64,000 nucleotides of DNA. It comes from Eledone cirrhosa (Eukaryota). A model generated the notes under the pieces. That model did no database searches, was not told the DNA's origin, and saw only the letters and a list, made by a program, of their open reading frames with translations. This document shows, in pieces, positions 4,255 to 41,145 of the stretch (position 1 is the stretch's first letter; every line of letters begins with the position of its first letter). Both the position numbers and the translations under genes were made by a program. Location: contig OZ024740.1 of assembly GCA_964016885.1 (NCBI GenBank), positions 316,944,001-317,008,000 on the forward strand, read 5' to 3'.

Positions 4255-4408
4255 TCAGACTGTATGTATTTTATATATATATATATATATATCACACAGC
4301 ACCAGACAGAATTTTTTCTTTCATCATCCGCTCTCATTTGGGAATGGTTTTATATGGTGTCAGTTTGTGATTTGAACTCGGGAATGTTATATTCTCCGAG
4401 GGAGAAGA

Positions 4409-4490
4409 GCCTTCTGAAGATTGCTCCCTTCTCAATGGAAATCCGCTTGGATTTTTCATTTATTCTGGAGTATGAAACTGAGGTAAAGGC
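4409..4490 (+). ncRNA. Type I hammerhead ribozyme motif (stem III decayed)
   Basis: gcctt-CTGAAGA-t-tgctcc...ggagta-t-GAAA-ctgagg-TA-aaggc. Confidence 0.75.
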
Positions 4491-4895
4491 ACATATAGTA
4501 AGTACAGCAAATTTTTTTTTATTTATTTAAAAACTTTTTCTCTATTTGCTAGACTTTGATTTTATATGTTCTGGCTTGTTAATTTATTAACCCACCATAG
4601 AACCACATTGGCATACGGTTGGATAATACTTGTTTCCCTATATGTATTTTTTACACGTAGGAACTCATACTTTATTATTATTAATCTCCCCCTAAGGTAG
4701 AGATAAAATTTTGGCTGTTTGGACAGCTGCTATTTCTAGTGGCAGGACATTGACCTGTCCACTCTGCCTTCTGTCTTTGCACACGGTGCCAGACAGAATT
4801 ATTTCTTTCATCATCCGCTCTTATTTGGGAATGGTTTTGTATGGTGTCAGTTTGTGATTTGAACTCGGGAATTTTATATTCTCCGAGGGAGAAGA

Positions 4896-4977
4896 GCCTT
4901 CTGAAGATAGCTCCCTTCTCAATGGAAATCCGCTTGGATTTTCCGTTTATTCTGGAGCATGAAACCGCGGTAAAGGC
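4896..4977 (+). ncRNA. Type I hammerhead ribozyme motif with palindromic stem III
   Basis: Stem I gcctt/aaggc, core CTGAAGA, stem II gctcc/ggagc, GAAA, ccgcgg, cleavage triplet GUA (after 4972). Confidence 0.88.
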
Positions 4978-5045
4978 ACATATAGTAAGTACAGCGAATT
5001 TTTAAAAATTTATTCTAAAACTTTTTCTCTATTTGCTAGACCTTG

Positions 5046-5106
<61 letters not shown>

Positions 5107-5534
5107 CATACAGTGTGAATGTATGTGTGTGTTTCTGTATGTCTTAAGGAAAACTGGGCTACAACACAGAACAATAAAAATAATTGTTTCTTTTATTTGT
5201 CACAAAGGCATCAGAAGAAGGAAACTTTACAAAAAAACAAGTTACAACATGAAAAGGGGGCTTACATAGAAATGAGAAAAAAATGGGTAACGTGTATACA
5301 TAATATACACATAGATATATATCTTCTTTCTTTAAATCAATTGACAAGATCCAAGACTTCATTTGCTTACAGAGTGGGATGGAACTTGCCAGATTGGACC
5401 AAGAAAGACAATGTTTCCATTGTTGATTCCAGCTGTAACTCCTGGCAGAGTGAAATAAAATATCTTTCTCAAGAATATAGCACATTGTCCAGTCTGGGAA
5501 TTGAACTTGCAACCTCACAATTGCTATCCAATTG

Positions 5535-5716
5535 TGAATTTGCAGTATCGGTAGAGGGTCGGACGCCATGCTTTTCAGCATAGTTACGTCCCTTTATGGC
5601 CTGAGTTCAAATCACGTTGAGGTTAACTTTGCCTTTCATCTTTACGGGGTTGATAAAATAAAGTACCAGTAATGCACTGGGTGATTGCTGGCCTTGTGCC
5701 AAAAGTAGAAACAATT
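5535..5716 (+). mobile_element. tRNA-derived SINE S1
   Basis: A-box-like tgcagtatcgg, B-box gagttcaaatc, shared body, AAT-type tail. Confidence 0.9.
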
Positions 5717-5762
5717 ATTTTATCAACCTCAGAAAGATGAAAGACAAAGTTGACTTTAGCAG

Positions 5763-6165
5763 GAAAACTCCTTCCAGAAGCAACTATCTCCAACAGATCC
5801 AGCTGGATCCCCAAGCAAGACCAGCCAAACCTATGGATATTATCGAACCATCTTGCTTGGGATCTACCTGTGGATCTCTTGCCAGTTGGTTTTGCCCGTA
5901 AAATCTGTCCAGCGATTCTTTCCTGAGACATTCTAACCACTAACCCATAGTATCGGAGCTGTGATCTCTCAATTTGGAGATGTAGCCCTCCACCTGAAGC
6001 GGTTCTCTGATCACTGAGCTAAGCACTCTATCGAATAATGTTACTCAAAAAACCCTTTGGAGGAACCCAATTGTGGCTGCTTGTATTCACAATCATATTC
6101 TTTCAGTCATTACCCAAGATTCATGAGACCATAGGTAAGGGTTGGCACAAATACCAAATTGAAGA
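5763..6165 (-). mobile_element. RTE/Expander(Rex3)-like LINE fragment
   Basis: YGLMNLG/WVMTERI region and VRMSQERIAGQILRAKPTGKRSTGR. Same family as 63095-63280. Confidence 0.75.
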
Positions 6166-6687
6166 TTGTTGCAATAGATCAAATTATTGATATAAGTATG
6201 GTAGAAGCAGTAGTAACTAGAAATAGTAATATGATATATACTAAAAATAGCAAGTTAGTCAGAGGTAAGATTATATCAGTTGTCATAAGTTGCAGTCTGT
6301 TGTATTTTCGATTTTCAAACAAAATGTCATTATAATAATAATGTTTGAACTTGTATAATCATGTTAATTTTTGTTTTATATCAGTAAGTGAAACAAATAT
6401 AGTAACAGTAACGATTGAAATAGTAATCCTGATAGTGGTATATATATATATATAAATCATTAAATCATTGAAACCACAGGTGGTCTAAAAGCTGATGAGA
6501 AAATTCAATGTTTGTCAGGTCCCCTCTTGTCTATTTTATCCCTTTCTCATTTTCCCTATCACTTCTGTGAGCTAACACACTTCTGGCCACTGATTTCAAA
6601 TCGTTTGAAGTAAATGTTGCCACCGTTGATGGCAATTTCTTGTTTTAACTGCTTCCATGCTCTGAGTTCTTCCCATTACTATATGTT

Positions 6688-6875
6688 ACATGGCTTAGTG
6701 GCTAGAGCGTCGGGCTTACAATCATGAGGTTGAGAGTTCGTTTCTCAGACCAGGCTTTGCGTTGTGTTCTTGAGCAAGATACTCTATTTCACGTTGCTCA
6801 AGTTTACTCAACTGCAGTTGCAATGTCAGGGGTACCAAGCTGTATCAGTCACTACCTTTACCATGGACAACATCA
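6688..6875 (+). mobile_element. tRNA-derived SINE (family S2)
   Basis: A-box tggcttagtgg, B-box gagttcgtttc. Related copies at 34605-34750 (+), 61630-61775 (-) and a partial one at 10205-10385. Confidence 0.8.
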
Positions 6876-7274
6876 TATGTAGTGTACATATAGGTTATAT
6901 AAGGTGTATGTAGTGTATTATATAGTAAGTATATAATATATATATATCTTAAAAACTTACAATAGCCCCTTATAATCAACTTAGTTCGAGGAAAATATAT
7001 ATATATATACGGAGATCGGAATTAAGAGTATTCCGCAGTTCACAGTAATAATAATAATATTAGCTCAAAGAGAAATAGAGAATTTTCTTCTGAGCTCAGA
7101 TACAAATATAAATATATTACACAGTGAGATGTGTGTAAAGAATTATTACAAGTGATTTTTACCGTTACTGTATAGAGAACAATATCTAGAGGTTTAGCAA
7201 TTAAATAGAAAAAAACTAAGTCAGAATCAAATCTCTGAAGCAGAGTTTTAAATTACCAACCTTATAACTATAAG

Positions 7275-7350
7275 TTTGCTGATATGAATCAAGTTCGTTT
7301 CACCACAGAAATGTGCAGTATAACAGTCCACAGGATCCTCAGTCAGCAAA
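7275..7350 (-). ncRNA. Type I hammerhead ribozyme motif
   Basis: Minus strand: tttgctga-CTGAGGA-tcc...ggt-GAAA-cgaacttgattca-TA-tcagcaaa. 8-bp stem I. Confidence 0.8.
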
Positions 7351-7590
7351 TGTGGATGCTGTTCATGACACATCTAACCTCATGGATAGAGAGAAAGCTA
7401 ATATACACGCTGCCCAGAGTAGGGCGAAATCACGTGTTATTTGCATCAAATAACGGCTCTCATGGATTGGGGAAAATGCTAGAGAGAGCAGCCCAACCAT
7501 TCAAATTTATTAGCTCAATAATTTGGAGTTCGTTAAGTATACGGAGATCGGAATTAAGAGTATTCCGCAGTTCACAGTAATAATAATAAT

Positions 7591-7774
7591 TGTTTCTACT
7601 TTAGGCACAAGGCCAGCAATTAGCCAGTGCATTACTGGTACTTTATTTTATCGACCCCGTAAGGATGAAAGGCAAAGTCAACCTCGGCGGGATTTGAACT
7701 CAGATCGTAAAGGGACATAACTATGCTGGAAAGCATGTGGTCCGACCCTCTACCGATACTGCCAATACACCGCC
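7591..7774 (-). mobile_element. SINE S1 with 16-bp TSD
   Basis: cagtaataataataat at 7575-7590 and 7775-7790. Confidence 0.92.
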
Positions 7775-8097
7775 CAGTAATAATAATAATATTAGCTCAA
7801 AGAGGAATAGAGAATTTTCTTCTGAGCTCAGATATAAATATAAATATATTACACAAATATATATATATATATACATTCAAATGTCCCTTATGATTTGAAC
7901 ACATATATATAGTGTTTGTTTCTCTTTACTGTGTTATATATATATTTTTTTTTGTGTGTAGGGTGGGGGGGGGGGTTGATATGAAATCGTGTGTTGAAAC
8001 AAATATTGTTATATTTGGGGAGGGTCATATTGTTATAATATTGCCAGAAATAATAATAGAACACACTTACTGTTTGGTTTGGGTTAGTTAGATTAAA

Positions 8098-8576
8098 TAA
8101 TTGTTTTTACTATTGGCATAAGGCCAGCAATTATCCTAGTGCATTACTGGTACTTTATTTTTATTGACCCTGTAAGGATGAAAGACAAAGTTAACCTCAC
8201 CAGGATTTGAACTCAGAATGACAAGGGCCATAACTCTATGCATCAAACCATGGCGTCTGACCCTCTACCGATACTGCCAATCCACCGCCCTTTTTCTACT
8301 TTTGGCATAAGACCAGCAATTACCCCTGTGCATTACTGGTACTTTATTTTATCGACCCCGTAAGGTGGAAAGGCAAAGTTAACCTCGACGGGATTTGAAT
8401 TCAGACCGTAAAGGGATGTAACTATGCTAGGAAGCATGGCGTCCAACCCTCTGCCAATACTGCCAATTCACTGCCATTTTGATTAAATAATTGTTTCTAC
8501 GTTAGGCACAAGGCCAGCAATTACCCAGTGCATTGCTGGTACTTTATTTTATCGACCCCGTAAGGATGAAAGGCAA
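8098..8576 (-). mobile_element. Three tandem SINE S1 copies (the last is 5'-truncated)
   Basis: Units at about 8098-8289, 8291-8475 and 8488-8576. Confidence 0.9.
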
Positions 8577-8656
8577 AAAATGGCGTAGACATTACAATAC
8601 AACGGGAGGAAAGATAATAGCGCTTCACAGATGTGTGACGAAAGAACTTTGATAGA

Positions 8657-8706
<50 letters not shown>

Positions 8707-8729
8707 CTGTATTTTTAACTGTTGGTCAA

Positions 8730-8775
<46 letters not shown>

Positions 8776-8824
8776 ATATACAATAATATTAAATAAATGG
8801 AAACTATATTTATAAAACCATATT

Positions 8825-8885
8825 TATTCTATTATATGTATTTCAAGGGTACCAACATTTTGGTACGCTATCATCAGATAAAATA
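8825..8885 (-). ncRNA. Degenerate type I hammerhead motif inside a TA-adjacent element with 21-bp inverted repeats
   Basis: Minus strand: tattttat-CTGATGA-tagcgtacca..tggtaccctt-GAAA-tacata-TA-atagaata. IRs at 8786-8806 / 8961-8981. Confidence 0.7.
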
Positions 8886-9022
8886 CGAAGTGTGTTTTAT
8901 CAATTTTGACATAACCAAGGAGAATATACCTTAACAGTTCAAGTTATCCTTGGATAACTTTAGTTTCCATTTATTTAATATCATTTAATATTATACTCCA
9001 GAAAACCTGTAGAGTGCTCTGA

Positions 9023-9572
9023 ATCATCATCATCATCATCATCATCAACGTTTAACGTCCGTGTTCCACGCTTGCATGGGTTTGGACGGGGGTAGTCCCA
9101 CTTGAGGCAAGAGTGATTGTCTTGCTCGCATAGGACTGTCTGGCAGGTTTTCTACAGCTGGATGCCCTTCCTAACACCAACCACATTTACAGTGTGGGTC
9201 TGGGAGGTTTTTACCGTGTTGCCTACACGGCCACATTGCAGCGTGGACTGTGTGTTTTTTTGTCGTGACACCTACACGATCTCATTTGTTTCGGCCTGGA
9301 TGGCGCGGCACCAACATGACTTTACATAGAATGGGGTGGTGTGGATGGGGTGGGGGTGGTGGGACGGGGTGTATTTTGTTAGAGATGCCTACTGGCTGGA
9401 GTAGGTTTTACTATATATTTAGGTAAGGCGGGTCTTCTCTATTACTGAGTACCGCCAAAGGTCTCGGTCCAGTGACATTGTCTTGGAGAGGTGTAAGTGT
9501 GTGATGTCGGAGTTTATCAGCTCGTCCCAGGTTTTTCTAGGTCTGCCTATTCCGTGACTACCGTCTATCTTA
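9023..9572 (-). mobile_element. RTE subfamily B 3' end
   Basis: Near-identical to 38203-38755; (CAT)n tail. Confidence 0.92.
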
Positions 9573-9660
9573 TTGAATCAGTTATAAATATTTATATTTG
9601 TTGAATAACCAACAAATTGAATATCCCTTCTGCTTATATATATAATATATATATATATAT

Positions 9661-9784
9661 AGTGGTAGAACACTGGAAGGTAATATCTGTAGTGGTAGAG
9701 CACTCAGTTCATGGGACGAGTTAGGTAGAAGTGGTTACAGAACTGTTAGTTCACCATACCGGTGAACTAACTGTTGTGTAACCA

Positions 9785-9787
<3 letters not shown>
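9661..9787 (-). mobile_element. Short copy of the 3' terminus of the Penelope-like element, with fold-back
   Basis: 9661-9761 matches 30810-30910. 27-bp inverted arms at 9729-9755 / 9761-9787; (TA)n on both sides. Confidence 0.85.
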
Positions 9788-9835
<48 letters not shown>

Positions 9836-9838
<3 letters not shown>

Positions 9839-10046
9839 CCAGTAAGACCCCGACAGCTGAGCTCAAACCGTTTCGACGGCTAATTCTGGACTAAATGGAA
9901 TTGCATTTAGTCCAGAATTAGCCGTCGAAACGGTTTGAGCTCAGCCGTCGGGGTCTTACTGGTTCCTATTACCCACTCTACTACCCTAAGTATTGAGTAC
10001 TTTGGTGCGTTATGGTCCACCTGGTTCCTTACCACATTTCCTTCGT
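9836..10046 (+). mobile_element. TA-embedded fold-back element (65-bp arms) carrying the 3' half of a hammerhead
   Basis: Palindrome 9836-9965, centre 9900/9901, 2 mismatched pairs. GAAA-cggtt-tgagctc-agccg-TC at 9927-9949. Confidence 0.75.
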
Positions 10047-10162
10047 TATATATATATATATATATATATATATGTAGGAGGTGAGTTTTAATGTAGTACA
10101 ATAAAGCAATGCAGATATCGGATAAGAAGCACTCTACAGTTTGTAGGACTGGAGTATACATA

Positions 10163-10208
<46 letters not shown>

Positions 10209-10534
10209 CATGTCACTGGTGCCAAGATGTATCAGCCATAGCTTTTCACTTGGACAACATCGGTGGCGTGGAGAAACTGGTATACATGGGTGACTGCTGG
10301 TCTTCTACAAACAACCTCGGCGGACTTGTGCCTCTAAGAAGAACTTTCTAGGTGCAAATCCTATGGTCATTTATGACCAAACGGGGTCAATTCCCATACC
10401 CTTTATGTTGCAATATTGTTGCACCAGTTTGAGAGAAGACAAGTATAAGATGATGTATTTGTGTGTGAGCAAGTTAGTAACCCCTTCACAAACAATTGGT
10501 CAATTCCTCTATGTTGAAGCAAGTGTTGCATCAT

Positions 10535-10925
10535 GTGCAAGTGCATGTACATATGTATGCATGTGTGTGTATGTGTGTGGGTATCTGTGTGTGTGTGTAT
10601 GTGTCTGTGCATGTGTGTCTCTGTGTGTGTCTGCATGTCAGCATGTGTGTGTACATGCATGTGTGTATGTGTGCGTGTGTGTGTATATGTATGTGTGCGT
10701 GTGTATGTGTGTATGTATGTGTCTGTGTGTGTGTATATATGCATGAGTGTGTATGTGTGCATGAGGGTGTATGTATGTGTTAGTGCACATGTGCTTGTGC
10801 ATGTGTAGGCAGATGCATGTGTGTACGCATGTGTGTGCACAGAAATGTGTATGTGTAGGTCTGTGTGTGTATGTGTGTATGTGTGTATCTGTGTATTCAT
10901 GTGTGTGTACATATGTGTATGCATA
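10535..10925. repeat. Degenerate (TG)n microsatellite
   Basis: Direct inspection. Confidence 0.95.
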
Positions 10926-11416
10926 TGAATTAATAAGTTAGTATTCAAGTCATTGAACATTTGATACTGTCATCATCTTGGTGAGAGAGACAGATTCATT
11001 GCTGTTTATAACTCTCCTTACATTGAGTTAGGTTTACTAACTGAAGACAATCTCACACAAGCTGTCCCTCCTCCTCATTTCCTTTAACTTGGCTTTCGTC
11101 TTTTTGTTTTCTTTCCTTTTCTTTGATAGATTAGGGAAGTGATTGATGCATTTTGGAAAGGTCAGGAAAGAGATTTAAGCCAGCGCCATATTTATAAATA
11201 TAATTAAAATGTCGAAAGCTGGAATTATTCCCTCATGTTTTAAAAAAAAGAATTTGTAAAGTCAATCAAATGTTTAGGTTTTCCATTCCAGAAGAATTCT
11301 GTTGCACGGATCTATGACTACGAGGAGATATCAATTGGAATTAGATACTGGATGCTTCCATAGCTAGGTTGTTGTTTCATGAGACACAACTATTAATTAT
11401 ACATACACAAGATGGT

Positions 11417-11425
11417 CAACAACAA

Positions 11426-11472
<47 letters not shown>

Positions 11473-11738
11473 CCATTACCATCATCACCATCATCATTAT
11501 CATTATCATCATTGTTATCATTGTCAACATCATCACCATTATCATTACCATCAGCATAATCATCATCATCATCATCATTGCCATCATAATCATCATCATC
11601 ATCATTATAATCAACATCATCACCATCATCATCAGCATCATAATCATTATCATTATCATCATCATCCTCATCATCACCATTCTCCTCCTCCTCCCCCCTC
11701 ATCATCATCTTCTCCATCATCATCATCATCATTATCAT
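11417..11738. repeat. (CAT)n microsatellite, probably an expanded RTE tail
   Basis: Followed by tttaacatctgcttttc, the typical RTE 3' terminus on the minus strand. Confidence 0.9.
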
Positions 11739-11834
11739 TTAACATCTGCTTTCTCTGATAGCAAGTGTTGGATTTAAGTGAGTACTTAAACAGAGCCACT
11801 GATTTCACACTACAAAGTGGATCATGCTATTTAA

Positions 11835-12055
11835 CCCGTTAGCCTTTACATTACTCTATACATACTATTGTATTTTGGGGGTAAAGGCTTTATTTGACAT
11901 AATTATCTCACATAATATCGAATCTATGAGATTTTGATGTTATTTATTTTGAGAACAATACCTTAACTTAAGTACGAGTGGCCAGCTATGGCCAGTTTGA
12001 ACAGAAAGATGTGAAAGAATTCTGGACAGATATGGCCAGTTTAAATGCTAAAGGG
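11835..12055. mobile_element. piggyBac-type MITE
   Basis: TTAA|ccc...ggg|TTAA termini, TIR cccgttagccttta/taaatgctaaaggg. Related copies at 22439, 23875, 57363. Confidence 0.85.
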
Positions 12056-12112
12056 TTAATATGGCAACAGCACTAGGGAGGTCATCAAATGTAAGGTCCA
12101 GAATTTGTAGTA

Positions 12113-12312
12113 TCATATATACTCAAATATAAGCCGATACAAATATAAGCCAACCCCACTATTTTATGTCTGAGAAATGGACAAAAATCCAAACCTTATT
12201 TATGTAGAATTTGAAGTTGGTGAAAACCATCAAAATATTGATCTCAAATATAAGCTGACCCCACCTCTACCAACGATTTTTTGGTTATGTATTCCTTGGC
12301 TTATATTGAAGG
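12113..12312. mobile_element. Tc1/pogo-type MITE remnant
   Basis: tatactcaaatataagccg ... ggcttatattga inverted termini with repeated aaatataagc motifs. Confidence 0.55.
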
Positions 12313-12429
12313 ATCTTTTCAAAGAAGGATGTTCATAGAAGCAGTGCAAATTTAATATGAGGTGTATAAGAGGCGTGTAAATGATATCTGAGCCTTAGTG
12401 TAAATGATATCTGAGTTAGGGGGGAATGA

Positions 12430-12990
12430 TGAAAGGTATAATTTGAATTAAAGTATGAGTTCTCAGAGGTGATAGCAAATAGATCGTTAATGTACAGAAG
12501 ATTAAGAATCTAGGAATCATTACCAAAGATAAGGATACACCAGAATTAACATAAGGCTACAGAGAACTCCATCAATACACAGTGCAATGTAGTGATCAGA
12601 TAGGAATCTTCCAATACAACAGATGGTAAATGGATGAAACCTATAGGAAGATAACTTAGCTGAAAGATTTTCAAGTCTGATATGGACAAAGGTTTGCTGA
12701 TGCCAAGTTCAATGATATTACCTTTGCTGAAATTCTCAAGAGCAACAATCCCCTTGGTGACTGACATAGGAGAATACGTTCCCAGTAGATCTGGCTCTAC
12801 AGAAACTAAACTTATGGCCACTGAAGAGAGGAGAGAAAGAGACTTAAAGTGATAAAGGATGTCTGCATGGTCTTGTAACTCCCAAGGGAGTCATAAGGGG
12901 GCTGTATTGACATACAGTGTTTCTATGGCATTTTAAAACCTAGCAGAGCCCATCTCCTCTCCATGTCTGAATACAGCAGATTTCTTCCAG
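12430..12990 (-). mobile_element. Possible old LINE endonuclease fragment
   Basis: ORF 12546-12821 loosely resembles an APE N-terminus; heavily decayed. Confidence 0.3.
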
Positions 12991-28440: not shown

Positions 28441-28534
<94 letters not shown>

Positions 28535-28768
28535 TTAGAAACACACAGATACATGCGGACACACACATATATACATGAATGCATCCGCACCCAACTGTGA
28601 GTTAAGGGTGCCAACTTCACCGATGTTGCTCAATGAATGACTGGGACAGACCAATTCAGTTTGAACCAGACTGAACCAGTATCAGAGTTAAAAATACATT
28701 ATGAAGAGAGAAGAAACATTTAGATATAATTAGTAATAAAATGTATCATACCTAAACTGTTCCTAAAT

Positions 28769-28856
28769 TCCTCGACTACGTAGTTTCGTGGCATAAACAA
28801 AAACAATATATCAAAGATATAGAGTCCTTGCGAGGTCTGCCGACTTATCAAGAGGA
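28769..28856 (-). ncRNA. Type I hammerhead motif (inverted-head copy)
   Basis: Reverse complement of 29058-29145. Confidence 0.82.
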
Positions 28857-29057
28857 TACCTCATTTTACTAGTCTCAAGAACGCGTCTACACGACGTGAG
28901 AAAGAATCCCAAAAGGCGGAGGGGGAGATAGTCACGCGATATAACGGTCGAGAAACAGAGCTAAGCCTCTTATAACCACGAAAAAAATACCCCTCCGCCT
29001 TTTGGGATTCTTTCTCACGTCGTGTAGACGCGTTCTTGAGACTAGTAAAATGAGGTA

Positions 29058-29145
29058 TCCTCTTGATAAGTCGGCAGACCTCGCAAGGACTCTATATCTT
29101 TGATATATTGTTTTTGTTTATGCCACGAAACTACGTAGTCGAGGA
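29058..29145 (+). ncRNA. Type I hammerhead motif, U3-A8 core variant
   Basis: tcctc-TTGATAA-gtcggca...tgccac-GAAA-ctacgtag-TC-gagga. GUC cleavage site after 29140. Confidence 0.85.
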
Positions 29146-29648
29146 ATTTAGGAACAGTTTAGGTATGATACATTTTATTACTAATTATATCTAAATGTTT
29201 CTTCTCTCTTCATAATGTATTTTTAACTCTGATACTGGTTCAGTCTGGTTCAAACTGAATTGGTCTGTCCCAGTCATTCATTGAGCAACATCGGTGAAGT
29301 TGGCACCCTTAACTCACAGTTGGGTGCGGATGCATTCATGTATATATGTGTGTGTCCGCATGTATCTGTGTGTTTCTAAATGTATTAATAACTCCCTCTG
29401 GTCGAGCAATCTTTGAAGTGTGGGGACAACTGGAAAGCTTCCATTACTCATACTTCTCGCCTTCTTCACTACCTCTTCTGCGGCCTCGATATGAATACCC
29501 CCTCCGCCTCCGTGGTATTTTTTTCGTGGTTATAAGAGGCTTAGCTCTGTTTCTCGACCGTTATATCGCGTGACTATCTCCCCCTCCGCCTTTTGGGATT
29601 CTTTCTCACGTCGTGTAGACGCGTTCTTGAGACTAGTAAAATGAGGTA

Positions 29649-29736
29649 TCCTCTTGATAAGTCGGCAGACCTCGCAAGGACTCTATATCTTTGATATATT
29701 GTTTTTGTTTATGCCACGAAACTACGTAGTCGAGGA
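29649..29736 (+). ncRNA. Type I hammerhead motif, copy 2
   Basis: Identical, +591 bp. Confidence 0.85.
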
Positions 29737-30239
29737 ATTTAGGAACAGTTTAGGTATGATACATTTTATTACTAATTATATCTAAATGTTTCTTCTCTCT
29801 TCATAATGTATTTTTAACTCTGATACTGGTTCAGTCTGGTTCAAACTGAATTGGTCTGTCCCAGTCATTCATTGAGCAACATCGGTGAAGTTGGCACCCT
29901 TAACTCACAGTTGGGTGCGGATGCATTCATGTATATATGTGTGTGTCCGCATGTATCTGTGTGTTTCTAAATGTATTAATAACTCCCTCTGGTCGAGCAA
30001 TCTTTGAAGTGTGGGGACAACTGGAAAGCTTCCATTACTCATACTTCTCGCCTTCTTCACTACCTCTTCTGCGGCCTCGATATGAATACCCCCTCCGCCT
30101 CCGTGGTATTTTTTTCATGGTTATAAGAGGCTTAGCTCTGTTTCTCGACCGTTATATCGCGTGACTATCTCCCCCTCCGCCTTTTGGGATTCTTTCTCAC
30201 GTCGTGTAGACGCGTTCTTGAGACTAGTAAAATGAGGTA

Positions 30240-30327
30240 TCCTCTTGATAAGTCGGCAGACCTCGCAAGGACTCTATATCTTTGATATATTGTTTTTGTT
30301 TATGCCACGAAACTACGTAGTCGAGGA
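30240..30327 (+). ncRNA. Type I hammerhead motif, copy 3
   Basis: Identical, +1182 bp. Confidence 0.85.
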
Positions 30328-30396
30328 ATTTAGGAACAGTTTAGGTATGATACATTTTATTACTAATTATATCTAAATGTTTCTTCTCTCTTCATA

Positions 30397-30492
<96 letters not shown>

Positions 30493-30535
30493 AGTAAGTA
30501 TGTTTTGAAACAGTGAGCAGGTTTGAAATTAGAAA

Positions 30536-30722
30536 ATAGAATAGCTTTCACTGTATTTTTGACTAAAGGAATTTTAGCCTGATAATGGGGTTTAGAACCC
30601 TCAGATAAATGGAAAAAGATGAGTATTGACGTACGTCAATACTCATCTTTTTCCATTTATCTGAGGGTTCTAAACCCCATTATCAGGCTAAAATTCCATT
30701 AGTCAAAAATACAGTGAAAGCT

Positions 30723-30729: not shown

Positions 30730-30809
<80 letters not shown>

Positions 30810-30813
<4 letters not shown>

Positions 30814-32430
30814 GTGGAACACTGGAAGGTAATATCCGTAGTGGTAGAGCACTCAGTCCATGGGATGAGTTAGGTAGAAGTAGTTACACAACTGTTAGTT
30901 TACTATACCGAGAACAATTGTTTCACCTTAGCGGATCCTCAGGTCGGAATGGGCATGGTTATAGGAACAGGAAGGACAACCGTATGAACACGCATGCGCA
31001 GAAACCCGGTCACTTCACACAGGCAATACTAGACTGCGTGCGAGAGGTGTAAGGGAGATAACTGTGAAAGTCCGAAAAGTTTCTATGTTGAAAATAAAAT
31101 TACAAAGAATCAGTCCGGAGCCTTCTAGTTATGCAATAGGTGTTTGGAAATGTGTGGACAACGTGTGAAAAATTCATTTCTCGTGTTTAGGCAATCACTA
31201 TTGCGTAATCTCTTTAGAATAGTTATTCGTTCGTCAATACATAAGCCACACGTCGGATTTCCCCTTGCGTATGGCTTGGACTTAGTGATGGCTTTCCATT
31301 GAATGGAGTAGCCTATACTTGAGTCCTTGAGGGACCATACGTGGCTCACGAGTTTCGTGGATGAACGTCTGTCCGGGTACCTGAAGGTAGACTGGTGGTT
31401 CAGGAAACGTTCTTTAAATCGGTCCTCCGCCATGCCCACATAGGATTTGACCTCCTGTGGTTCATTTGGTCGGTTGGAAGTGATCACAGCTTCATAAATT
31501 ACAGCTGGTGTGTTGGATTGCTGTTGAAGGAGGAAAATCTCAGGCTTACGGCAAGAGCACCCTGGTGGGGTGTTGCTCCTAGGGTTGCTGGTGATGTGGG
31601 CCTTCATGTTCTTAGTGCAGGAGTATCCTAGTTTAACTTTGTGTCGGTTAAAGATGAGGCGGTATTTATGACCTATGGGAAAGTGTCTATCTAAGAGGGC
31701 TAGAAATTTTTTTCCTACATTGGTTTTAACATTGAGTGAGAAGGAAGGAGAGAACCAGATAGGTTGTCTATTGTTGCGGTTACTTTTCTTAATGGTATTG
31801 TTGCTAGTGGGAGAGTAAGTGATCGGTTGTGAGAAGCCTCTGTTAGCCAAACGCCGTGTTATAATAGGGTGCCGCCCTGTCAAAGATAGCCTTATTAGAG
31901 GAGAGATTTGAGATTCTAGTACTGATATTGTTAACGAAGTTTCTAAAAACAGTGGGAGGGTGGCATGAGTCCTTGTGAATGTAATTGAGTTTCTCGTTTA
32001 GCTTATGGAAGGGTTTGTGGGTGTGGTGTGGACGAAGGTCTAAATTAATGTCTAAGAAATCTACGCTAGATAGGTTGGTGGCTACTGTTATCCTAAGTCC
32101 TAACTCATTGAAGGTAGAAGCTAAGTCTTTTTTAAACCGGTCGAGGTCGTGACCACTTTTATGGCTCGATAAAGTCACTCCATCGTCGCGGTATATTCCC
32201 GTGTGGAAGTCCGGGAATCTAACACGTAATATGTATAAGATAAAAAGGCCAACCAAGTCACATACATCAGCACTGTCAAACGATCCCATGGAGACGTCGA
32301 ATAGGTCTGAAGTTGTAGACTTCTTTGCCCAGGCTACTCCGTCGTTGAAGAGGAGGGGTTTCCGGCAGTGAGTGATGATTTCCTTGTCTAAACAATCGAC
32401 GGTGGTATAAGTGATAGCGAAGCATCTGGA
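30810..32430 (-). mobile_element. Penelope-like element, 5'-truncated (RT + GIY-YIG), tentatively Naiad-type
   Basis: MGSFDSADVCDLVG, IYRDDG, VDFLDI, then CSCRK linker, VIY..SYVG..FKERF..H, CGLC, C-x-H. One frameshift near 31860; 3' end abuts (TA)n. Confidence 0.92.
30908..30947 (-). ncRNA. Minimal type I hammerhead in the Penelope 3' pLTR
   Basis: Minus strand: ccgac-CTGAGGA-tccgctaaggt-GAAA-caattg-TT-ctcgg (C-C mismatch at 1.1/2.1). Confidence 0.8.
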
Positions 32431-34345
32431 AAGCATCTGGAATGGTGGGACACACTATGGTCACCCAGATAGTAAACCAAGTCATACAGAATGGGGTCGT
32501 TCCGAAGGACTGGCGTAGCAGCAGCATCATTAACTGCTACAAGGGTAAAGGAGATGCCCTAGATAGGGGAAACTATAGGCATTAAATTAATTGACCAGGT
32601 CATGAAGGTCACAGAAAAAGTAATAGCGCAACTAATCAGAGAGCGAATTGATCTAGATGAAATGCAGTTTGGGTTTGTGTCAGGTAAAAGTACAACAGAC
32701 GCTCTTTTCATTGTACGACAACTACAGGAGAAGTACCTAGCTAAAAGTAAACCCCTATACTTAGCTTTTGTTGATTTGGAGAAAGCCTTTGACAGAGTAC
32801 CCCGCTCGATTATCTGGTGGGCTCTTAGAAAACTAGGTGTTGATGAATGGCTTGTGAGAGCTATACAAGCCATGTATAAAGAAACAGTCAGTAAGGTTAG
32901 AATTAACAATGAATATAGTGAAGAGTTTAGCGTAAAAGTTGGTGTTCATCAGGGCTCCGTCCTTAGCCCCCTACTATTTATTATTGCCCTTCAGGCTATA
33001 ACAGAGGAGTTCAAGACCGGCTGCCCATGGGAACTCCTATGTGCAGATGATCTGGCTGAACTAGAGAAGAAATTCCAAACATGGAAGCATGGCCTAGAAT
33101 TAAAAGGCCTTAAAATTTACCTGTCTAAGACTAAAGTTCTAGTTTGTAGGAAGGAAAATAGGGCACCGGTCCCATCTGGGAAATGGCCATGCTCAGTGTG
33201 TAGGAAAGGAGTAGGCAGAAACTCCATTTTATGTCCCAAATGCAAAGTATGGGTGCATAAAAGATGTAGTGGGATCACAGGTAAGCTAACTAAGAATATA
33301 GATTTTATATGTGGCCGGTGCTCTGGGGCAATAAGTAGCAGCAAGTGCTCACAAAATACTAGCTCATTCCATTCCACAGATGGTTCTATAGAAATAGTGG
33401 ACACCTTCCGTTACCTGGGTGACAAAATCAGCAGTGGGGGAGGGTGCTCTGAAAGTACAGTAGCTAGAGTCAGAACGGGATGGAAAAAGTTCAGAGAGCT
33501 TATACCACTATTGGTCGCTAAAGGGTTCTCTCTAAAAATGAAAGGCAGGCTGTATGATGCCTGCATACGAACAGCAATGTTACATGGCAGTGAGACTTGG
33601 GCATTGTGTGCAGAGGATATACGCAGACTGGAGAGGAACGGAGCTTGCATGCTCCATTGGATGTGTAATAGTAATATACGTGAACGGCAAAGCATAAATG
33701 AACTAAGGGAGAAATTAGGAATAAGAGGAATCAGATGTTGTTTACTAGAGAGAAGGCTACGTTGGTATGGTCACGTGATGCGCATGAAGGACGATAGCTG
33801 TATAACAAAGTGCAGGGCAATAAAGATAGACGGTAGCCACGGAGTAGGCAGACCCAGAAAAACCTGGGACGACCTGACTGATAAATTCCGACCTCACACA
33901 CTTACACCTCTCCAAGACAATGTCACTGGACCGAGATCGTTGGCGCTACACAGTAATATAGAAGACCCGCCTTGCCTAAGTACAAAGCAAAACCTACAGC
34001 CAGTAGGCACCTCTAACAAAAATACACCCCTGTCCCACTATCCCCCACCCCATCCACACCACCCCTTTCCAGTCCGAAACAAATGAGGTCGTGTAGGTGT
34101 CACAACAAAAAACACACAGTCCACGCTGTAATGTAGCCGTGTAGGCAACACGGTAAAAACCTCCCAGTCCACACCGTAAACGTGGTTGGTGTTAGGAAGG
34201 GCATCCAGCCGTAGAAAACCCGCCAGACAGTCCTATACGAGCAAGACAGCCAATCTTGCCTCAAGTGGGAAAATTCCCGTCCAAACCCATGCAAGCGTGG
34301 AAGATGGACGTTAAACGATGATGATGATGATGATGATGATGATGA
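32431..34345 (+). mobile_element. RTE subfamily B, 5'-truncated
   Basis: ORF 32602-34086 is an RT (YADD mutated to CADD) with PHD-like finger; (GAT)n tail. Confidence 0.95.
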
Positions 34346-34379
34346 TATATATATATATATGCATATGTATATATATATA

Positions 34380-34567
34380 TAATTGTTTCTACTTTTGGCA
34401 CAAGGCCATCAATTACCCAGTACATTACTGGTACTTTATTTTATCGACCCCGTAAGGATGAAAGGCAAAGTTAACCTCGGCGGGATTTGAACTCAGACTG
34501 CAAAGGGACGTAACTATCCTGGAAAGCATGGCGTCCGACCCTCTACTGATACTGCCAATCCACCGCC
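34380..34567 (-). mobile_element. SINE S1, full length
   Basis: Minus strand begins ggcggtggattggcagtatc, with A and B boxes. Confidence 0.92.
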
Positions 34568-34769
34568 ATATTATACCACCATTATATATATATATATATA
34601 ATGAAGGTGCTTGGCTTAGTGGTTAGAGCATTGGGCTTGCAATCGAAAGGTTGTGAGTTCAATTCTCGGACCTGGTGATGTGTTGTTTCCTTAAGCAAGA
34701 CACTTTATTTCACATTGCTCCAGTTTACTCAGCTGTAGAAATGAAATGATAGGACTGGGGTCTCTATCA

Positions 34770-35049
34770 TTCCACTACAAAGTGGTCGTGAAGGTGCCAT
34801 GGCAAAAAAGCACCCAGCCCACACTGTAAAGTGGACGCGTAGGTGCCACGGAAAAAAAAAAGCACCCAGCACTCACTGTAAATGAGGTTGGTGTTAGGAA
34901 GGGCATCCAGCTGTAGAAATCAAGCCAAAATCAGTTCCCGTATGAGCTAGACAAGGTCAGCCGACCGGACACTGCCCGCAAGAGGACAAGCCGTCTAACC
35001 CATGCTAGTGTGGAAGAACGGACGTAAAACGGTAATGATGATGATGATG

Positions 35050-35052
<3 letters not shown>
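34770..35052 (+). mobile_element. RTE subfamily C 3' UTR
   Basis: Matches 49330-49588; (GAT)n tail. Confidence 0.85.
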
Positions 35053-35076
<24 letters not shown>

Positions 35077-35080
<4 letters not shown>

Positions 35081-35895
35081 TAAAATGGCGAGCTGTGTGG
35101 TTGCAATTAAGTATAATGAAAATATGAAAAATAAAAGTTACGGCGAAAGAGGGGAATATCCATCGTCAGTTGTCTGCTTGGAATCATAGGTATTTCTTCG
35201 CATCAGAGACAAAATACCTCAGCCTAGGGCGAACAATAACTAAAATAAGTTATTGGGATAAAAAATAAAGGTGGGGGGGGGGGAGAAAAACATGTAAACA
35301 GACACGAAGGGTGAAGCAATTTTTTCATTATACTTAAACGCAACCACACAGCTCGCCATTTTATTCATATAAGCTTCCTTCTCTGCTGTGACCCGTCTCT
35401 TTTCTCTCCCCTTGTTGCTATCTTCTCTCTCCTTCTCCCTCTTACTTTCGCTCACCCCCTCTGCTAGTCACCTTCTCTCGGCTAGCCTGCCACTATAATT
35501 ATCTCTTTCTCGCTTCCTCTTACTTTCACTCACTCCCTCTCTGCTAGTCATCCTCTCTCTGCTAGCTCACTTTCTCCCTCATCCGCCACTGTAAGCAGTC
35601 TCTTCTCTCGCTCACACTGCTACAGCTAAGACGTGTCTTGTTTCTCTCTCATCAAACTCGCCAGTTCTTACATTCGAAATGACTTGATATTTTCCTCTCT
35701 TTATGTTGCTTCACCCTTCGTGTCTGTTTACATGTTTTTCCGCCCCTCCCCTTCTTTTATCCCAATAATTTATTTTAGTTATTGTTCGCCCTAGGTTGAG
35801 GTATATTGTCTCTAACGCGAAGAAATACCAATGATTCCTAGTAGTCAACTGACGATGGATATTCCTCTCTTTTATTTTTCATTTTTTCATTATAT
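35077..35895. mobile_element. TA-embedded element with an inverted head spanning its unit junction
   Basis: 35077-35319 is the reverse complement of 35706-35893 joined to 35320-35368. Confidence 0.75.
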
Positions 35896-35909
35896 ATATA
35901 TATAACTAT

Positions 35910-36259
35910 CTAAGGCGGGTAAAATTCTCTCCAGCGGTCTCTGTCCCTCATTATCACTGCCATGTCCTGCGTCTCCAACAGACCAGTGTCTTACCTTAGG
36001 GCATCAACATACGTTAACCTTGGTCTTCCTCTTCTAGTGTGTCCATGTAGGTAGAGAATGTTGAGAAGCCAGAAGGGATCACTAATGTAGGCGGGAAGCC
36101 ACTGGAATTGGTTGAGGACTTCTTGTATTTGGGAGCAAAGATTGGGAATACGGAAGATGATGTGGTTGAGAGGAAGAGCAAGGCCTGGGCGGCGTGCCAC
36201 AGCTTGAGATCGGTGTGGAAGTCGAACCTTCGTAGAGACCTGAAAATCCGCCTCTTCAT
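35910..36259 (-). mobile_element. Short RTE copy (26.4-kb family) with 5' inversion
   Basis: 35910-36050 matches 26405-26567. 36050-36259 is the reverse complement of ~26832-27041. Confidence 0.88.
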
Positions 36260-36316
36260 ATATATATATATATACATATATTGATACAGAATATATTAAT
36301 ATATATGTATTAATAC

Positions 36317-36664
36317 AGAAGACCCGCCTTGCCTAAGTACAAAGCGAAACCTACAGTCAGTAGGCACCTCTAACAAAAATACACCCCTGTCCCACTACCC
36401 CCACCCCATCCACACCACCTCTAAAGTTATGTTGGTACCACAACATCCAGTCCGAAACAAATGAGGTCGTGTAGGTGTCACGACAAAAAAACACACAGTC
36501 CACGCTGTAAACGTGGTTGGTGTTAGGAAGGGCATCCAGCTGTAGAAAACCCGCCAGACAGTCCTATACGAGCAAGACAACCAATCTTGCCTCAAGTGGG
36601 AAAATTCCCGTCCAAACCCATGCAAGCGTGGAAGATGGACGTTAAACGATGATGATGATGATGA
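36317..36664 (+). mobile_element. RTE subfamily B 3' UTR
   Basis: Matches 33960-34345. Confidence 0.88.
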
Positions 36665-37048
36665 GGTATGTGTGTGTCTGTGTGTGTGTAAAGATATATG
36701 TATATATATATATGTGTATTTGTGTAAGTGTGTATGTGAAGAGAGAAAGAGGACAAGAAAACAGACAACTAGATCATTATACATGCATAGACATTCACAC
36801 AAACTTGCACACAATCTCAGATACACACATTCACACACACACACTATCTCACACTCATACACACACCCTCTTTCTCGTTCACCCACATGTACATCCACAT
36901 ACTTCCCCACACACACACAAACACACACTCACACATATACCCTCAGAATGACAGTGACTGACCTCCTATATTAACAAAACAACAGTCTCATTGTGTCATT
37001 ATAGACACAATGACAAAACAAACAACATATTAATAATAATGATAATAA

Positions 37049-37806
37049 CAATTGTTTCTACTTTTGGCATAAGGCCAGCAATTATCCCAGTACATTACTG
37101 ATACTTTATTTATCGACCCCCGTAAGGATGAAAGGCAAAGTTAACCTCGACGGGATTTGAACTCAAACCATAAAGGAACGTAACTATGCTAGAAAGCATG
37201 GCGTCCAACTCTCTACTGATACTGCCAATTCACCGCCGAGTTTAATATATATAATTGTTTCTACTTTTGGCACAAGGCCAGCAATTACCCAGTGCATTAC
37301 CGGTACTTTATTTTATCAACCCCGCAAGAATGAAAGGCAAAGTTAACCTCGGCGGGATTTGAACTCAGAATGGCAAGGGCCGTAACTCTATACATCAAAG
37401 CATGGTGTCCGACCCTCTACCGATACAGGTAAATCCACCAATTCAGGTAAAATTGCGTTATAACAAATTTATCAGTATGATGAAATTTTTTTTAATCCCC
37501 GGCCAAACTAACGATGCGTTAGGTCAATTCCATTACAACAAATATTTTTTTATACCCCATGAATTTCGTTATAACGGAATTTCACTGTAATTGTTCCTAC
37601 TTTAGATACAAGGCCAGCAATTTTAGGGTAGGGGAAAGTCGATTAAATAGACCCCAATACATTACTGGTACTTTATTTTATCGACCCCGTAAGGATGAAA
37701 GGCAAAGTTAACCGTAGCTGGATTTGAACTCAGAACATAAGGGGCCGAAACTCTACGCTGCAAAACATGTTGTCTGACGCTCTACCAATCCTGCCAATCC
37801 ACTGCC
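37049..37806 (-). mobile_element. Cluster of three SINE S1 copies
   Basis: Units at about 37049-37237, 37252-37440 and 37588-37806. Confidence 0.9.
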
Positions 37807-38202
37807 CTAACAACAACACTAACAGTAATAACAATAAAATAAATAGTAATATCAAACCTAGCTATTTACTATGCTAAAAACTTGAATACATACATGTTAA
37901 TATGGGAAATAACTGTATAACATGAAAACAATACAAGATATGTTTGCTGGACAGAATAGAGTTTTCTCTGATCTTTCTAGAATGTCTTATTAGCAATCAA
38001 TAAATAAGCAAGCATTTAACAATTTCTGTCAAGATTAGGCTGATACTAATTCACAAATTGTTCAAATAGATAAGGTAAGAAAGTAGACTAACAGCTTAGA
38101 GGTCATTTAGATATAAATCCTTTACATTGTGATATGTTGATATGTCTCAGATTGAGTTTCTTAATTCTATGTACTTCGCTTAACATAGCTGTCAATATAT
38201 AT

Positions 38203-39758
38203 ATCATCATCATCATCATCATCATCAACGTTTAACGTCCGTGTTCCACGCTTGCATGGGTTTGGACGGGGGTTTTCCCACTTGAGGCAAGAGTGATTGT
38301 CTTGCTCGCATAGGACTGTCTGGCAGGTTTTCTACAGTTGGATGCCCTTCCTAACACCAACCACATTTACAGTGTGGGTCTGGGAGGTTTTTACCGTGTT
38401 GCCTACACGGCCACATTACAGCGTGGACTGTGTGTTTTTTTGTCGTGACACCTACACGATCTCATTTGTTTCGGCCTGGATGGTGTGGCACCAACATAAC
38501 TTTACATAGAAGGGGGCGGTGTGGATGGGGTGGGGGTGGTGGGACGGGGGGTGTATTTTGTTAGAGATGCCTACTGGCTGGAGTAGGTTTTACTTTGTAT
38601 TTAGGTAAGGCGGGTCTTCTCTATTACTGAGTACCGCCAAAGGTCTCGGTCCAGTGACATTGTCTTGGTGAGGTGTAAGTGTGTGAGGTCGGAGTTTATC
38701 AGCTCGTCCCAGGTTTTTCTGGGTCTGCCTATTCCGTGGCTACCGTCTATCTTTATTGCCCTGCACTTTGTTATACAGCTATCGTCCTTCATGCGCATCA
38801 CGTGACCATACCAACGTAGCCTTCTCTCTAGTAAACAACATCTGATCCCTCTTATTTCTAATTTTTTCCTTAGTTCGTTTATGCTTTGTCGTTCACGTAT
38901 ATTACTATTACACATCCAGCGGAGCATGCAAGCTTCGTTTCTCTCTAGTCTGCGTATATCCTCTGCACACAATGCCCAGGTCTCACTGCCATGCAACATT
39001 GCTGTTCGTATGCAGGCATCGTACAACCTGCCTTTCATTTTTAGGGAGAACCCTTTAGCGGCTAATAGTGGTATAAGCTCTCTGAACTTTTTCCACCCAG
39101 TTCTGACTCTAGCTACTGTACTTTCAGAGCACCCTCCCCCACTGCTGATTTTGTCACCCAGGTAACGGAAGCTGTCCACTATTTCTATAGAACCCTCTGC
39201 GCAGTTGAAAGAGCTAGTATTTTGTGGGCACTTGCTGCTACTTATTGCCCCAGAACACTGGCCACATGTAAAATCTATGTTCTTAGTTAGCTTACCTGTG
39301 ATCCCACTACATCTTTTATGAACCCAAACTTTGCATTTGGGACACAAAATGGAATTTCTACCTACGCCTTTCCTACACTCTGCGCATGGCAACTTCCCGG
39401 AGGGGACTGCCGCCTTATTTTCTTTCTTACAAACTAGAACTTTAGTCTTAGCCAGGTTAATTTTAAGGCCTTTTGATTCTAGGCCGTGCTTCCATGTTTG
39501 GAATTTCTTCTCTAGCTCGGCCATTGATTCAGCTATGAGCGTTAGATCATCTGCGTATAGGAGTTCCCATGGGCAGCCGGTCTTGAACTCCACTGTTATA
39601 GCCTGGAGGGCAATAATAAATAGTAGGGGGCTAAGAACAGAGCCCTGATGAACACCAACTTTTACACTAAACTCTTCACTATATTCGTTGTTAATTCTAA
39701 CCTTGCTGACTGTTTCTTTATACATGGCTTGTATAGCTCTCACAAGCCATTCATCAAC

Positions 39759-39762
<4 letters not shown>
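38203..39762 (-). mobile_element. RTE subfamily B, 5'-truncated, open frame
   Basis: ORF 38601-39743: GVHQGSVLSP, YADD, PHD-like finger, YLG. Confidence 0.95.
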
Positions 39763-39822
<60 letters not shown>

Positions 39823-40059
39823 TATATATATATACATACATATATATACATATAATATATATTGTAGTCAGCATATGTAGACAATTTATAATAGACATGT
39901 TTAACGTCCATGTTTCCATGCTGGTATGGGTTAGGCGAATTGGAGTGTGGACTGGATGCTTTTTTGCCATGACACCTATATGACCACATTATATATAAAT
40001 GTAATATATCAATAAAAGATCAGAGGCCATATTCAGTTGATTCAGGTTTATTTAAAACT

Positions 40060-40117
40060 CCATTATACATATTTCACTGAGGACTATCAATTATGATTGC
40101 CTGAGTTCTTCAGACGG
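40060..40117 (-). ncRNA. Type I hammerhead motif in a TA-flanked element (~40008-40340)
   Basis: Minus strand: ccgt-CTGAAGA-actcagg...cctcagt-GAAA-tatgta-TA-atgg. A second, truncated copy is at 55236-55303. Confidence 0.78.
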
Positions 40118-40445
40118 CAAAACCTAAAATAAACATAGAAAGTTCCTAAGCAACTTTTAAATTTGGAAAAATCTAATAATTTCTCAGAAAAAAGATTTTA
40201 TTTCATGATACAAGGGGCCGGCCGAATGCATTCAGCTGGCCCCTTGTGTCATTTAACAGGTTCATGAGCGCTTCTTTTTATTTGCTTCACAACCGACAGA
40301 CCATGGTGTGATCCGCACATCCCTGCTCTCTTAACCTCTTACTCTATATACATATCTATATATATCTATATATAAAAGACGTAAAATAAGAACATTTAAA
40401 AAAAAAATTTTTTTTTAAAAATTAACTTACTTACTTAAATTTTCA

Positions 40446-40525
40446 CTCCAACTAATTAGTTTCTGCAATGGGATAAAGACAGTTACGTAATGAACCGTTG
40501 AGAATTTCATTGCGTCATCAGGGAG
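40446..40525 (-). ncRNA. Type I hammerhead motif (mirror copy)
   Basis: Reverse complement of 40874-40953. Confidence 0.8.
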
Positions 40526-40873
40526 GTCATTCTCAGCCGAGTCTCCAGGCGATGCGCGGACACTGGCGACTCATATAAAAATAATAATAATTCGGTAAAT
40601 GGAACAGCTATCGAGGACTGGATTCCAGCTACTGAAAATTCTCACTGCCACTGATCATATGGCCGATTCTAAAGAATCAATCACGTGACACAGAGGCTAG
40701 TCAGTAGGGGTGGTAAGATTGATTCTTTAGAATCGGCCATATGATCAGTGGCAGTGAGAATTTTCAGTAGCTGGAATCCAGTCCTCGATAGCTGTTCCAT
40801 TTACCGAATTATTATTATTTTTATATGAGTCGCCAGTGTCCGCGCATCGCCTGGAGACTCGGCTGAGAATGAC

Positions 40874-40953
40874 CTCCCTGATGACGCAATGAAATTCTCA
40901 ACGGTTCATTACGTAACTGTCTTTATCCCATTGCAGAAACTAATTAGTTGGAG
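40874..40953 (+). ncRNA. Type I hammerhead motif with palindromic stem III
   Basis: ctcc-CTGATGA-c-gcaatg...cattgc-a-GAAA-ctaattag-TT-ggag. Cleavage site after 40949. Confidence 0.83.
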
Positions 40954-41145
40954 TGAAAATTTAAGTAAGTAAGTTAATTTTTTTAAAAATTTTTTTAAAA
41001 AAATGTTCTTATTTTACGTCTTTTATATTATTGTTCTGCATTCTCCTGCATCGAACCACCTAGGTACTATGACATAACCTGTGTATTTGCTGGCATTGGC
41101 GTACATCTGTGCGCTTATGTTAGTAGATATATTAAATTATCTATA

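Follow-up and report, generated by a model that had tools for sequence, protein, structure and literature searches.

A probable leader-loop II helix in long-arm type I hammerheads of retrozymes from Eledone cirrhosa

We analysed a 64,000-nt stretch of the 3.0 Gb genome of Eledone cirrhosa (contig OZ024740.1, positions 316,944,001 to 317,008,000 of the forward strand; hereafter the window) in which four short repeat elements carry type I hammerhead ribozyme motifs. The motifs lie at 4896-4977(+), 7275-7350(-), 29058-29145(+) and 40874-40953(+), and we name the corresponding families by the position of the core: F1 (4901), F2 (7342, minus), F3 (29063) and F4 (40878). A previous description made from the letters of the window (the sequence-only reading) had placed the motifs there and had reported that one edge of an enlarged loop II is complementary to the bases just upstream of stem I, here called the leader. 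Both statements hold. GAGAAG at 4889-4894 faces CTTCTC at 4915-4920 in F1, TCCACA at 7351-7356 faces TGTGGA at 7327-7332 on the minus strand in F2, GAGGT at 29052-29056 faces ACCTC at 29078-29082 in F3, and TGAGAAT at 40864-40870 faces ATTCTCA at 40894-40900 in F4. All four follow the order stem I strand, CUGANGA, a stem II arm (roughly 40-60 nt), GAAA, stem III, UH and stem I strand, so that the core CUGANGA / GAAA / UH and stems I-III of the type I class are present in every family. The F3 core reads UUGAUAA, i.e. a U3-A8 variant in place of C3-G8. The hammerheads and the elements that contain them are as follows.

4889..4977, plus strand: F1 hammerhead with leader; predicted pseudoknot 4889-4894/4915-4920, core CUGAAGA 4901-4907, GAAA at 4961, predicted cut after 4972.
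7275..7363, minus strand: F2 hammerhead; stem I of 8 bp, basal stem II of 2 bp and stem III of 5 bp in the family; predicted cut between 7283 and 7282.
29051..29145, plus strand: F3 hammerhead; core UUGAUAA 29063-29069, predicted pseudoknot 29051-29056/29078-29083, palindromic stem III and a GUC site, with the cut predicted after 29140.
40864..40953, plus strand: F4 hammerhead; predicted pseudoknot 40864-40870/40894-40900, core CUGAUGA 40878-40884, palindromic stem III and a GUU site, with the cut predicted after 40949.
4293..5054, plus strand: F1 element; 1.5 head-to-tail copies of a 487-nt unit flanked by (TA)n runs, with a second hammerhead copy (core at 4414).
7006..7859, minus strand: F2 element; a unit of ~544 nt and a partial copy, split by another short repeat at ~7590-7775.
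28529..30402, plus strand: F3 array; inverted 5' part 28529-28991 and 2.4 head-to-tail 591-nt copies, (TA)n on both sides; cores at 29063, 29654 and 30245 (+) and at 28845-28851 (-).
40370..41150, plus strand: F4 element; inverted part 40370-40719 and direct part 40717-41150 of a 557-nt unit, with an inverted hammerhead copy (core at 40521, minus).

The elements are non-coding and bounded by (TA)n, as the sequence-only reading held. The longest open reading frame (ORF) starting with ATG is 29-75 aa across the units, and (TA)3+ adjoins 30/31 (F1), 33/42 (F2), 14/14 (F3) and 21/24 (F4) distinct 3' ends. Units measure 487 nt (F1), 544 nt (F2), 591 nt (F3) and 557 nt (F4) at 34-42% GC, and a first look returned more than 1,000 candidates in the genome for each family. 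More than one head-to-tail unit is found at 24/25 F1, 23/25 F2, 20/20 F3 and 15/20 F4 loci, and an inverted 5' part at 9/25, 18/25, 15/20 and 10/20 loci respectively (some loci overlap). Copies of each family end at one of two fixed 3' positions, 94-165 nt apart; the shorter end lies 151-158 nt after the core in F1, F3 and F4. Inverted copies usually have the short end on one arm and the long end on the other, and this is how the two arms of the F4 element in the window stop. Compared with their own family, the F1 and F2 copies in the window have one stem-breaking change each, and F3 is a very young family with many copies 100% identical.

Non-coding head-to-tail units with one type I hammerhead each are characteristic of retrozymes lacking long terminal repeats (LTR), and tandem copies with an inverted 5' part, an extra tail at one end and a (TA)n target are characteristic of non-autonomous Penelope-like elements (PLE). 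F1-F4 show both sets of features: they are non-LTR retrozymes, inserted as PLE are. The same tandem, inverted and tailed arrangement is described for PLE in the part of PMC8557442 available to us, where tails are 30-40 nt long compared to 94-165 nt here.

The four families were previously considered unrelated, with no primary sequence in common outside the core. This proved incorrect for F1 and F4: past the ribozyme they can be aligned for 81 nt (76.5%, E=7e-6, AT-rich), and they are therefore relatives. They also share GAGAA/TTCTC in the proposed helix, and GAG/CTC is common to F1, F3 and F4. The argument that four independent sequences covary was consequently wrong in form; what is seen is covariation among relatives.

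The long arm has a more defined structure than a loop. Fold prediction resolves the arm of F1, F3 and F4 into stem II, an internal loop and a distal hairpin, so that the 'long loop II' is an internal loop with another hairpin at its tip and only the loop edges are unpaired, a detail absent from the sequence-only reading. The two strands of the internal loop cannot pair with each other, leaving the 5' strand free for the leader ahead of stem I, to which it is complementary. Stem II has 5-9 pairs in the hammerheads with this helix, which we call the brace (2 in F2), and the arm is 35-80 nt long with one or two extra hairpins. From one subfamily to another the sequences of stem II and the distal hairpin vary widely, yet compensating changes preserve their pairs. 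Inspection by eye for a second helix, between the leader and the internal loop's 3' strand, gave no consistent pairing. We consider it probable that the retrozyme hammerheads of F1, F3 and F4 use a leader/internal-loop helix of 5-9 bp that holds stems I and II side by side.

Copies within F1, F3 and F4 are too alike to reveal covariation and diverged subfamilies were used instead, fetched genome-wide with patterns containing neither strand of the helix. About 21,000 matches were obtained altogether: 9,442 for group A (that of F4), 7,598 for that of F3, 2,507 for group D (that of F1), 818 for group C and 600 for group B, with 0 matches to the reversed pattern in each of the five groups. Groups B and C, together with group G, are three further lineages with the same build that came from blind sampling of the genome. 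In all six lineages the leader and the loop strand are complementary over 5-9 bp in a similar register, with a sequence particular to the lineage: GAGAA(T)/(A)TTCTC in A, GAGAAG/CTTCTC in F1, TGAGGT/ACCTCG in F3, GAGTT/AACTC in C, GGAAA/TTTCC in B and GGGC/GCCC in G. The in-register helix of L281 and L285 has 4 bp, the scripted pick having been off-register. As far as the available part of that paper defines it, the stem I-loop II pseudoknot of Perreault 2011 (PMC3088659) is recognisable in F1, F3, F4 and groups B, C and G.

The assignment of each leader to its own loop beats the 719 other assignments in total score over the six lineages (p=1/720, using each group's commonest leader); the group G leader alone scores better with the group B loop. 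Double changes that preserve pairing occur in three groups: GAGAA/TTCTC to GAAAA/TTTTC in group A (L257, L259 and L267), GAGAAG/CTTCTC to GAAAAG/CTTTTC in group D, and GAGT/ACTC to GAGC/GCTC in group C. MAFFT alignments across lineages and within groups set the helix out of register, so that tool-based pair counting applies to F2 only; the within-group alignment left out L359 and L360, in which the leader is replaced.

A total of 120 evenly spaced 10-kb stretches (1.2 Mb) were scanned without reference to leader-loop pairing. This blind sample gave 143 hammerhead hits compared to 5 in shuffled sequence. Adding all other loci brought the set to 399 hits, which form 53 clusters; two of these, 9 and 51, were judged spurious and removed ahead of both chance tests. 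In the register test a cluster with loop II of at least 25 nt passed if it had a helix scoring at least 12 that ended at most 4 nt from stem I and started at most 4 nt from stem II. It was passed by 11/22 long-loop clusters, and by 8/19 without the three already covered by the sequence-only reading, compared to 5.7% for swapped leaders. About half of the long-loop clusters are without an in-register helix, and the helix thus marks a subgroup. As a separate observation, the genome, whose repeat landscape gives an octopus-like impression, holds about 1 hammerhead per 8 kb (L091-L110, L141-L240); these fall into ~50 sequence clusters and include canonical, minimal, long-stem and braced forms.

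Several results weigh against a functional brace. The register limits and score cut-offs were fixed after the hits had been seen, the clusters are partly related, and the match in cluster 6 is probably false, its strand looking like an extension of stem II. Without the families of the sequence-only reading, the unregistered test is weak (Fisher p 0.012 against shuffled and 0.058 against swapped leaders), and against two of three sets of control flanks it gives Wilcoxon p 0.09 and 0.16. Leader swaps within groups are significant in D (p=0.012) and not in A (p=0.42), B (p=0.50) or C (p=0.35), because most variants of these three have one helix sequence in common. In the commonest group D subfamily, an A-G mismatch inside the helix leaves 5 contiguous pairs. 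Minimum-energy nested folds place the leader in a hairpin of its own in F1 (TTCTCC/GGAGAA) and F3 (GAGG/CCTC), and the nested fold of F4 does not yield a hammerhead. The G10.1-C11.1 pair is absent from F1, F2 and F4. In F2 there are 2 doubly changed pairs for a nested partner and 1 for the pseudoknot. Finally, 13 PLE protein pieces compared with 170 loci (1.5-kb flanks) revealed no ORF leading into a braced hammerhead.

Some of these results would be expected if the hammerheads were real and active with no working helix, the purine-rich leader and pyrimidine-rich loop strand being inherited together and kept for non-canonical contacts or protein binding. The common GAG/CTC suggests a single ancestry, off-diagonal scores in the swap matrix are high (8-14) with one row better off-diagonal, and neither the within-group swaps (non-significant in 3/4 groups) nor the unregistered test is strong. 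Inheritance alone fits poorly with the same G-C to A-U double change in two lineages and a U-A to C-G change in a third, with the group-level p of 1/720, and with group C, where GAGTT pairs with AACTC and no purine/pyrimidine effect applies. We regard this explanation as unlikely.

The nested folds raise another possibility, namely that the pairing is real and acts as a switch or folding aid, the leader moving from a hairpin of its own (or stem I) to the loop strand and back, and thereby delaying the cut or holding it off in the circle. In addition to the leader hairpins of F1 and F3, the F2 loop strand has two partners. The competing hairpin is, however, weak or absent in most F1 relatives while the leader-loop helix is kept, and the geometry agrees with pseudoknots known to raise the cleavage rate (PMC3088659, as far as the part at hand describes them). 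We judge a switch to be quite improbable.

The base of stem II deserves separate consideration. It is mismatched in three of the four hammerheads, the 10.1-11.1 pair being G-C in F3 and most F1 relatives, U-U in F1, C-A in F4 and U-U or other in F2; G10.1-C11.1 is kept in PLE hammerheads (PMC4209133). Such mismatches could mean that the motifs do not cut and instead serve as RNA or DNA recognition signals for the Penelope machinery, spreading without circular RNA. Minimal PLE hammerheads cut poorly in vitro (PMC4209133), and the available part of bioRxiv 10.64898/2026.07.22.740005 reports no cleavage in 8/9 Xenopus retrozyme dimers. Every catalytic core position is nevertheless kept, including the C3-G8 to U3-A8 swap in F3, an axolotl hammerhead with U-U at the base of stem II is described as cutting in the accessible text of PMC7229834, and insertions of more than one unit fit a circular template. 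The chance that the motifs are inert in this sense appears very small to us.

For the selected leader-loop II helix in a diversified retrozyme group that had been proposed, the register test, lineage-specific pairing and double changes thus support F1, F3, F4 and three more lineages, and F2 is ambiguous. As an element F2 is of the same kind, but its hammerhead differs: stem I is long, basal stem II has 2 bp, and stem III has 5 bp and is non-palindromic. Its leader AACAG..CCACA can pair with the loop sequence TGTGG.CTGTT as two 5-bp helices, paired in 97.8% and 91.9% of cells (27 copies). The same loop strand has a nested partner inside loop II that is paired in 91.7%. The complementarity reported for F2 therefore stands at its place, but not as the sole pairing, since an equally good nested rival exists, and a brace in this family is uncertain.

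A leader-loop II pseudoknot as such is already known for type I hammerheads, and it is well supported that the long-arm internal-loop form in retrozymes is a variant of it. The following comparisons draw on the available portions of the cited works. Type I hammerheads with a stem I-loop II pseudoknot have been described and tested (PMC3088659, PMC10187678), with examples in a metagenome of the mouse gut, a Yarrowia lipolytica repeat and human C10orf118 (Perreault 2011, PMC3088659; PMC10187678). Such pseudoknots raise cleavage 20 to >100-fold in tested hammerheads (PMC3088659), and ~40% of surveyed hammerheads had some form of them (PMC3088659, PMC10187678). The Eledone hammerheads resemble that set in their type I order and the Watson-Crick helix between the stem I flank and loop II, and the Yarrowia example is likewise associated with a repeat. 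They differ in that the partner strand flanks an internal loop, within an arm of 35-80 nt that has one or two hairpins beyond the loop, that most have a short palindrome as stem III, and that they are carried by animal retrozymes of very high abundance.

Other systems share single traits. Retrozymes have been described as non-autonomous PLE derivatives (PMC7229834; bioRxiv 10.64898/2026.07.22.740005), and circularised units were shown for coral, mussel and axolotl retrozymes (PMC7229834). F1-F4 agree with these animal non-LTR retrozymes in having non-coding, low-GC tandem units with one type I hammerhead each in a PLE-rich genome, and differ in unit length (487-591 nt compared to ~170-400). 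The hammerheads of animal non-LTR retrozymes are described as canonical or minimal, and the word 'pseudoknot' is absent from the accessible part of PMC7229834. With PLE hammerheads (PMC4209133) ours share a short stem I (4-5 bp), a longer stem II, a palindromic stem III region, tandem and opposite-strand pairs and the U3-A8 variant, reported there for Schistosoma; no tertiary contact was recognised in that work. The type III hammerheads of toad and termite hepatitis delta virus (HDV)-like RNAs (PMC7936874) also make a Watson-Crick contact via the 5' strand of a hairpin-capped internal loop. Theirs mirrors ours: in type III order, helix I holds the internal loop, and terminal loop II is its pairing partner. 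In the PK hammerhead (Zhan 2024, PMC11300833) the partner is upstream of helix I and pairs with loop II as here, but helix II is down to about two pairs and an extra stem-loop provides the partner with its loop, compared to a stem II of 5-9 pairs (F2: 2) and a distal hairpin in our families. In a literature search limited to text passages, we found no description of the long-arm, internal-loop pseudoknot form in animal retrozymes.

No Rfam 15 hammerhead model matched at E<=1 when the whole window was scanned, or at E<=10 in short stretches of F4, F2 and six F1/F3 relatives; the window scan also missed the short-loop hammerheads of the window, so this negative is weak, and the Rfam comparison suggested with the sequence-only reading yielded no match. 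Two further type I hammerheads, of other repeat families, lie at 40030-40130 (-) and 8800-8890 (-); their stem II arm is short or fully paired, with no clear brace.

We hypothesize the following cycle from known systems. A tandem transcript would be cut once per unit at each predicted hammerhead, and the two palindromic stem III segments of F1, F3 and F4 may pair, probably aiding the cut via a two-copy fold such as that described for PLE and amphibian hammerheads. The cut unit would be joined into a circle, which a Neptune-type Penelope reverse transcriptase (RT)/endonuclease might copy more than once after nicking (TA)n, giving tandem and inverted insertions. The brace would compensate for the short stem I (4-6 bp) and the often mismatched stem II base. 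It stays on the ribozyme-bearing end after the cut and could thus favour re-joining too.

It is conceivable, although we advance it only tentatively, that these motifs are a hammerhead subclass of their own, one that Rfam and short-loop descriptors miss. Its leader would invade the internal loop of the long stem II arm and stack under the distal hairpin, and the subclass would be restricted to parasitic circles and selected for fast cutting and re-ligation that let these circles out-compete host elements for RT. The autonomous Penelope families inspected here lack the brace: their hammerheads are either minimal or have a long arm in which no brace is conserved. The candidates were rejected on different grounds: the hammerhead is minimal in 30 loci of the family found in the window, the loop edge varies while the leader stays constant in the L099 family, and stem II is extended instead in the L222/L230/L060 family.

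If the brace is real, many animal retrozyme hammerheads thought to be without stabilising contacts have one, in a long arm passed over by standard searches. With thousands of copies spread over many subfamilies, the genome offers a natural mutational series, and the young, nearly identical F3 suits direct tests of whether it cuts, whether a dimer is needed, whether circles form and what the brace does. Such tests would bear on the role of hammerheads in Penelope-type transposition, which is an open question.

PLE ORFs that have a C-terminal endonuclease and a CxC..CPL..C linker are plentiful in this genome, and by motifs read by eye they may belong to the Neptune or Nematis clade. A link to Naiad, considered from the accessible part of PMC8557442, was set aside, as all PLE ORFs seen had the C-terminal endonuclease. 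One PLE is present in the window.

30811..32454, minus strand (context only): Penelope-like element, 5'-truncated and broken; RT end and C-terminal GIY-YIG-like domain, motifs assigned by eye.

It has a minimal hammerhead without brace near 30940 and a (TA)n end, and a Pfam search with it gave no significant match; it is an example of the class that likely supplies the enzymes. A near-perfect 128-nt palindrome at 9837-9964 is a head-to-head hammerhead piece of another Penelope-like family (L099, L056, L321-L350) with 4,268 pattern matches, a long stem III and a U3-A8 core; one subfamily has C3 with A8. At 30540-30720 a long inverted repeat is flanked by two (TA)n runs and is probably the inverted end of another element. 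The repeat inserted in the F2 copy (7590-7775) is a short interspersed repeat with at least 6 copies in the window and a duplicated AAT-rich target. Below-threshold Rfam microRNA matches at 28881-29033 and 40636-40765 are the long hairpins of the F3 and F4 inversion junctions and were rejected as inverted-repeat artefacts.

A splice-donor-like word (GTAAGT, GTATGA, GTATGT or GTAGAT) lies 12-22 nt past the predicted cut in all braced lineages, at 4985-4990, 29163-29168 and 40965-40970 in the window and also in groups B, C and D. F1 has an acceptor-like tract ahead of the short end, and word and tract together are possibly a PLE intron. Contigs from four sequencing runs are self-closing at 591 nt; genomic tandems explain this, and it was not used as evidence of circular RNA. 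The F3 unit (28990-29580) is near-identical, with 3 and 5 differences in whole-unit contigs, in runs labelled as three organisms, which label differences, mixed samples or close species could explain.

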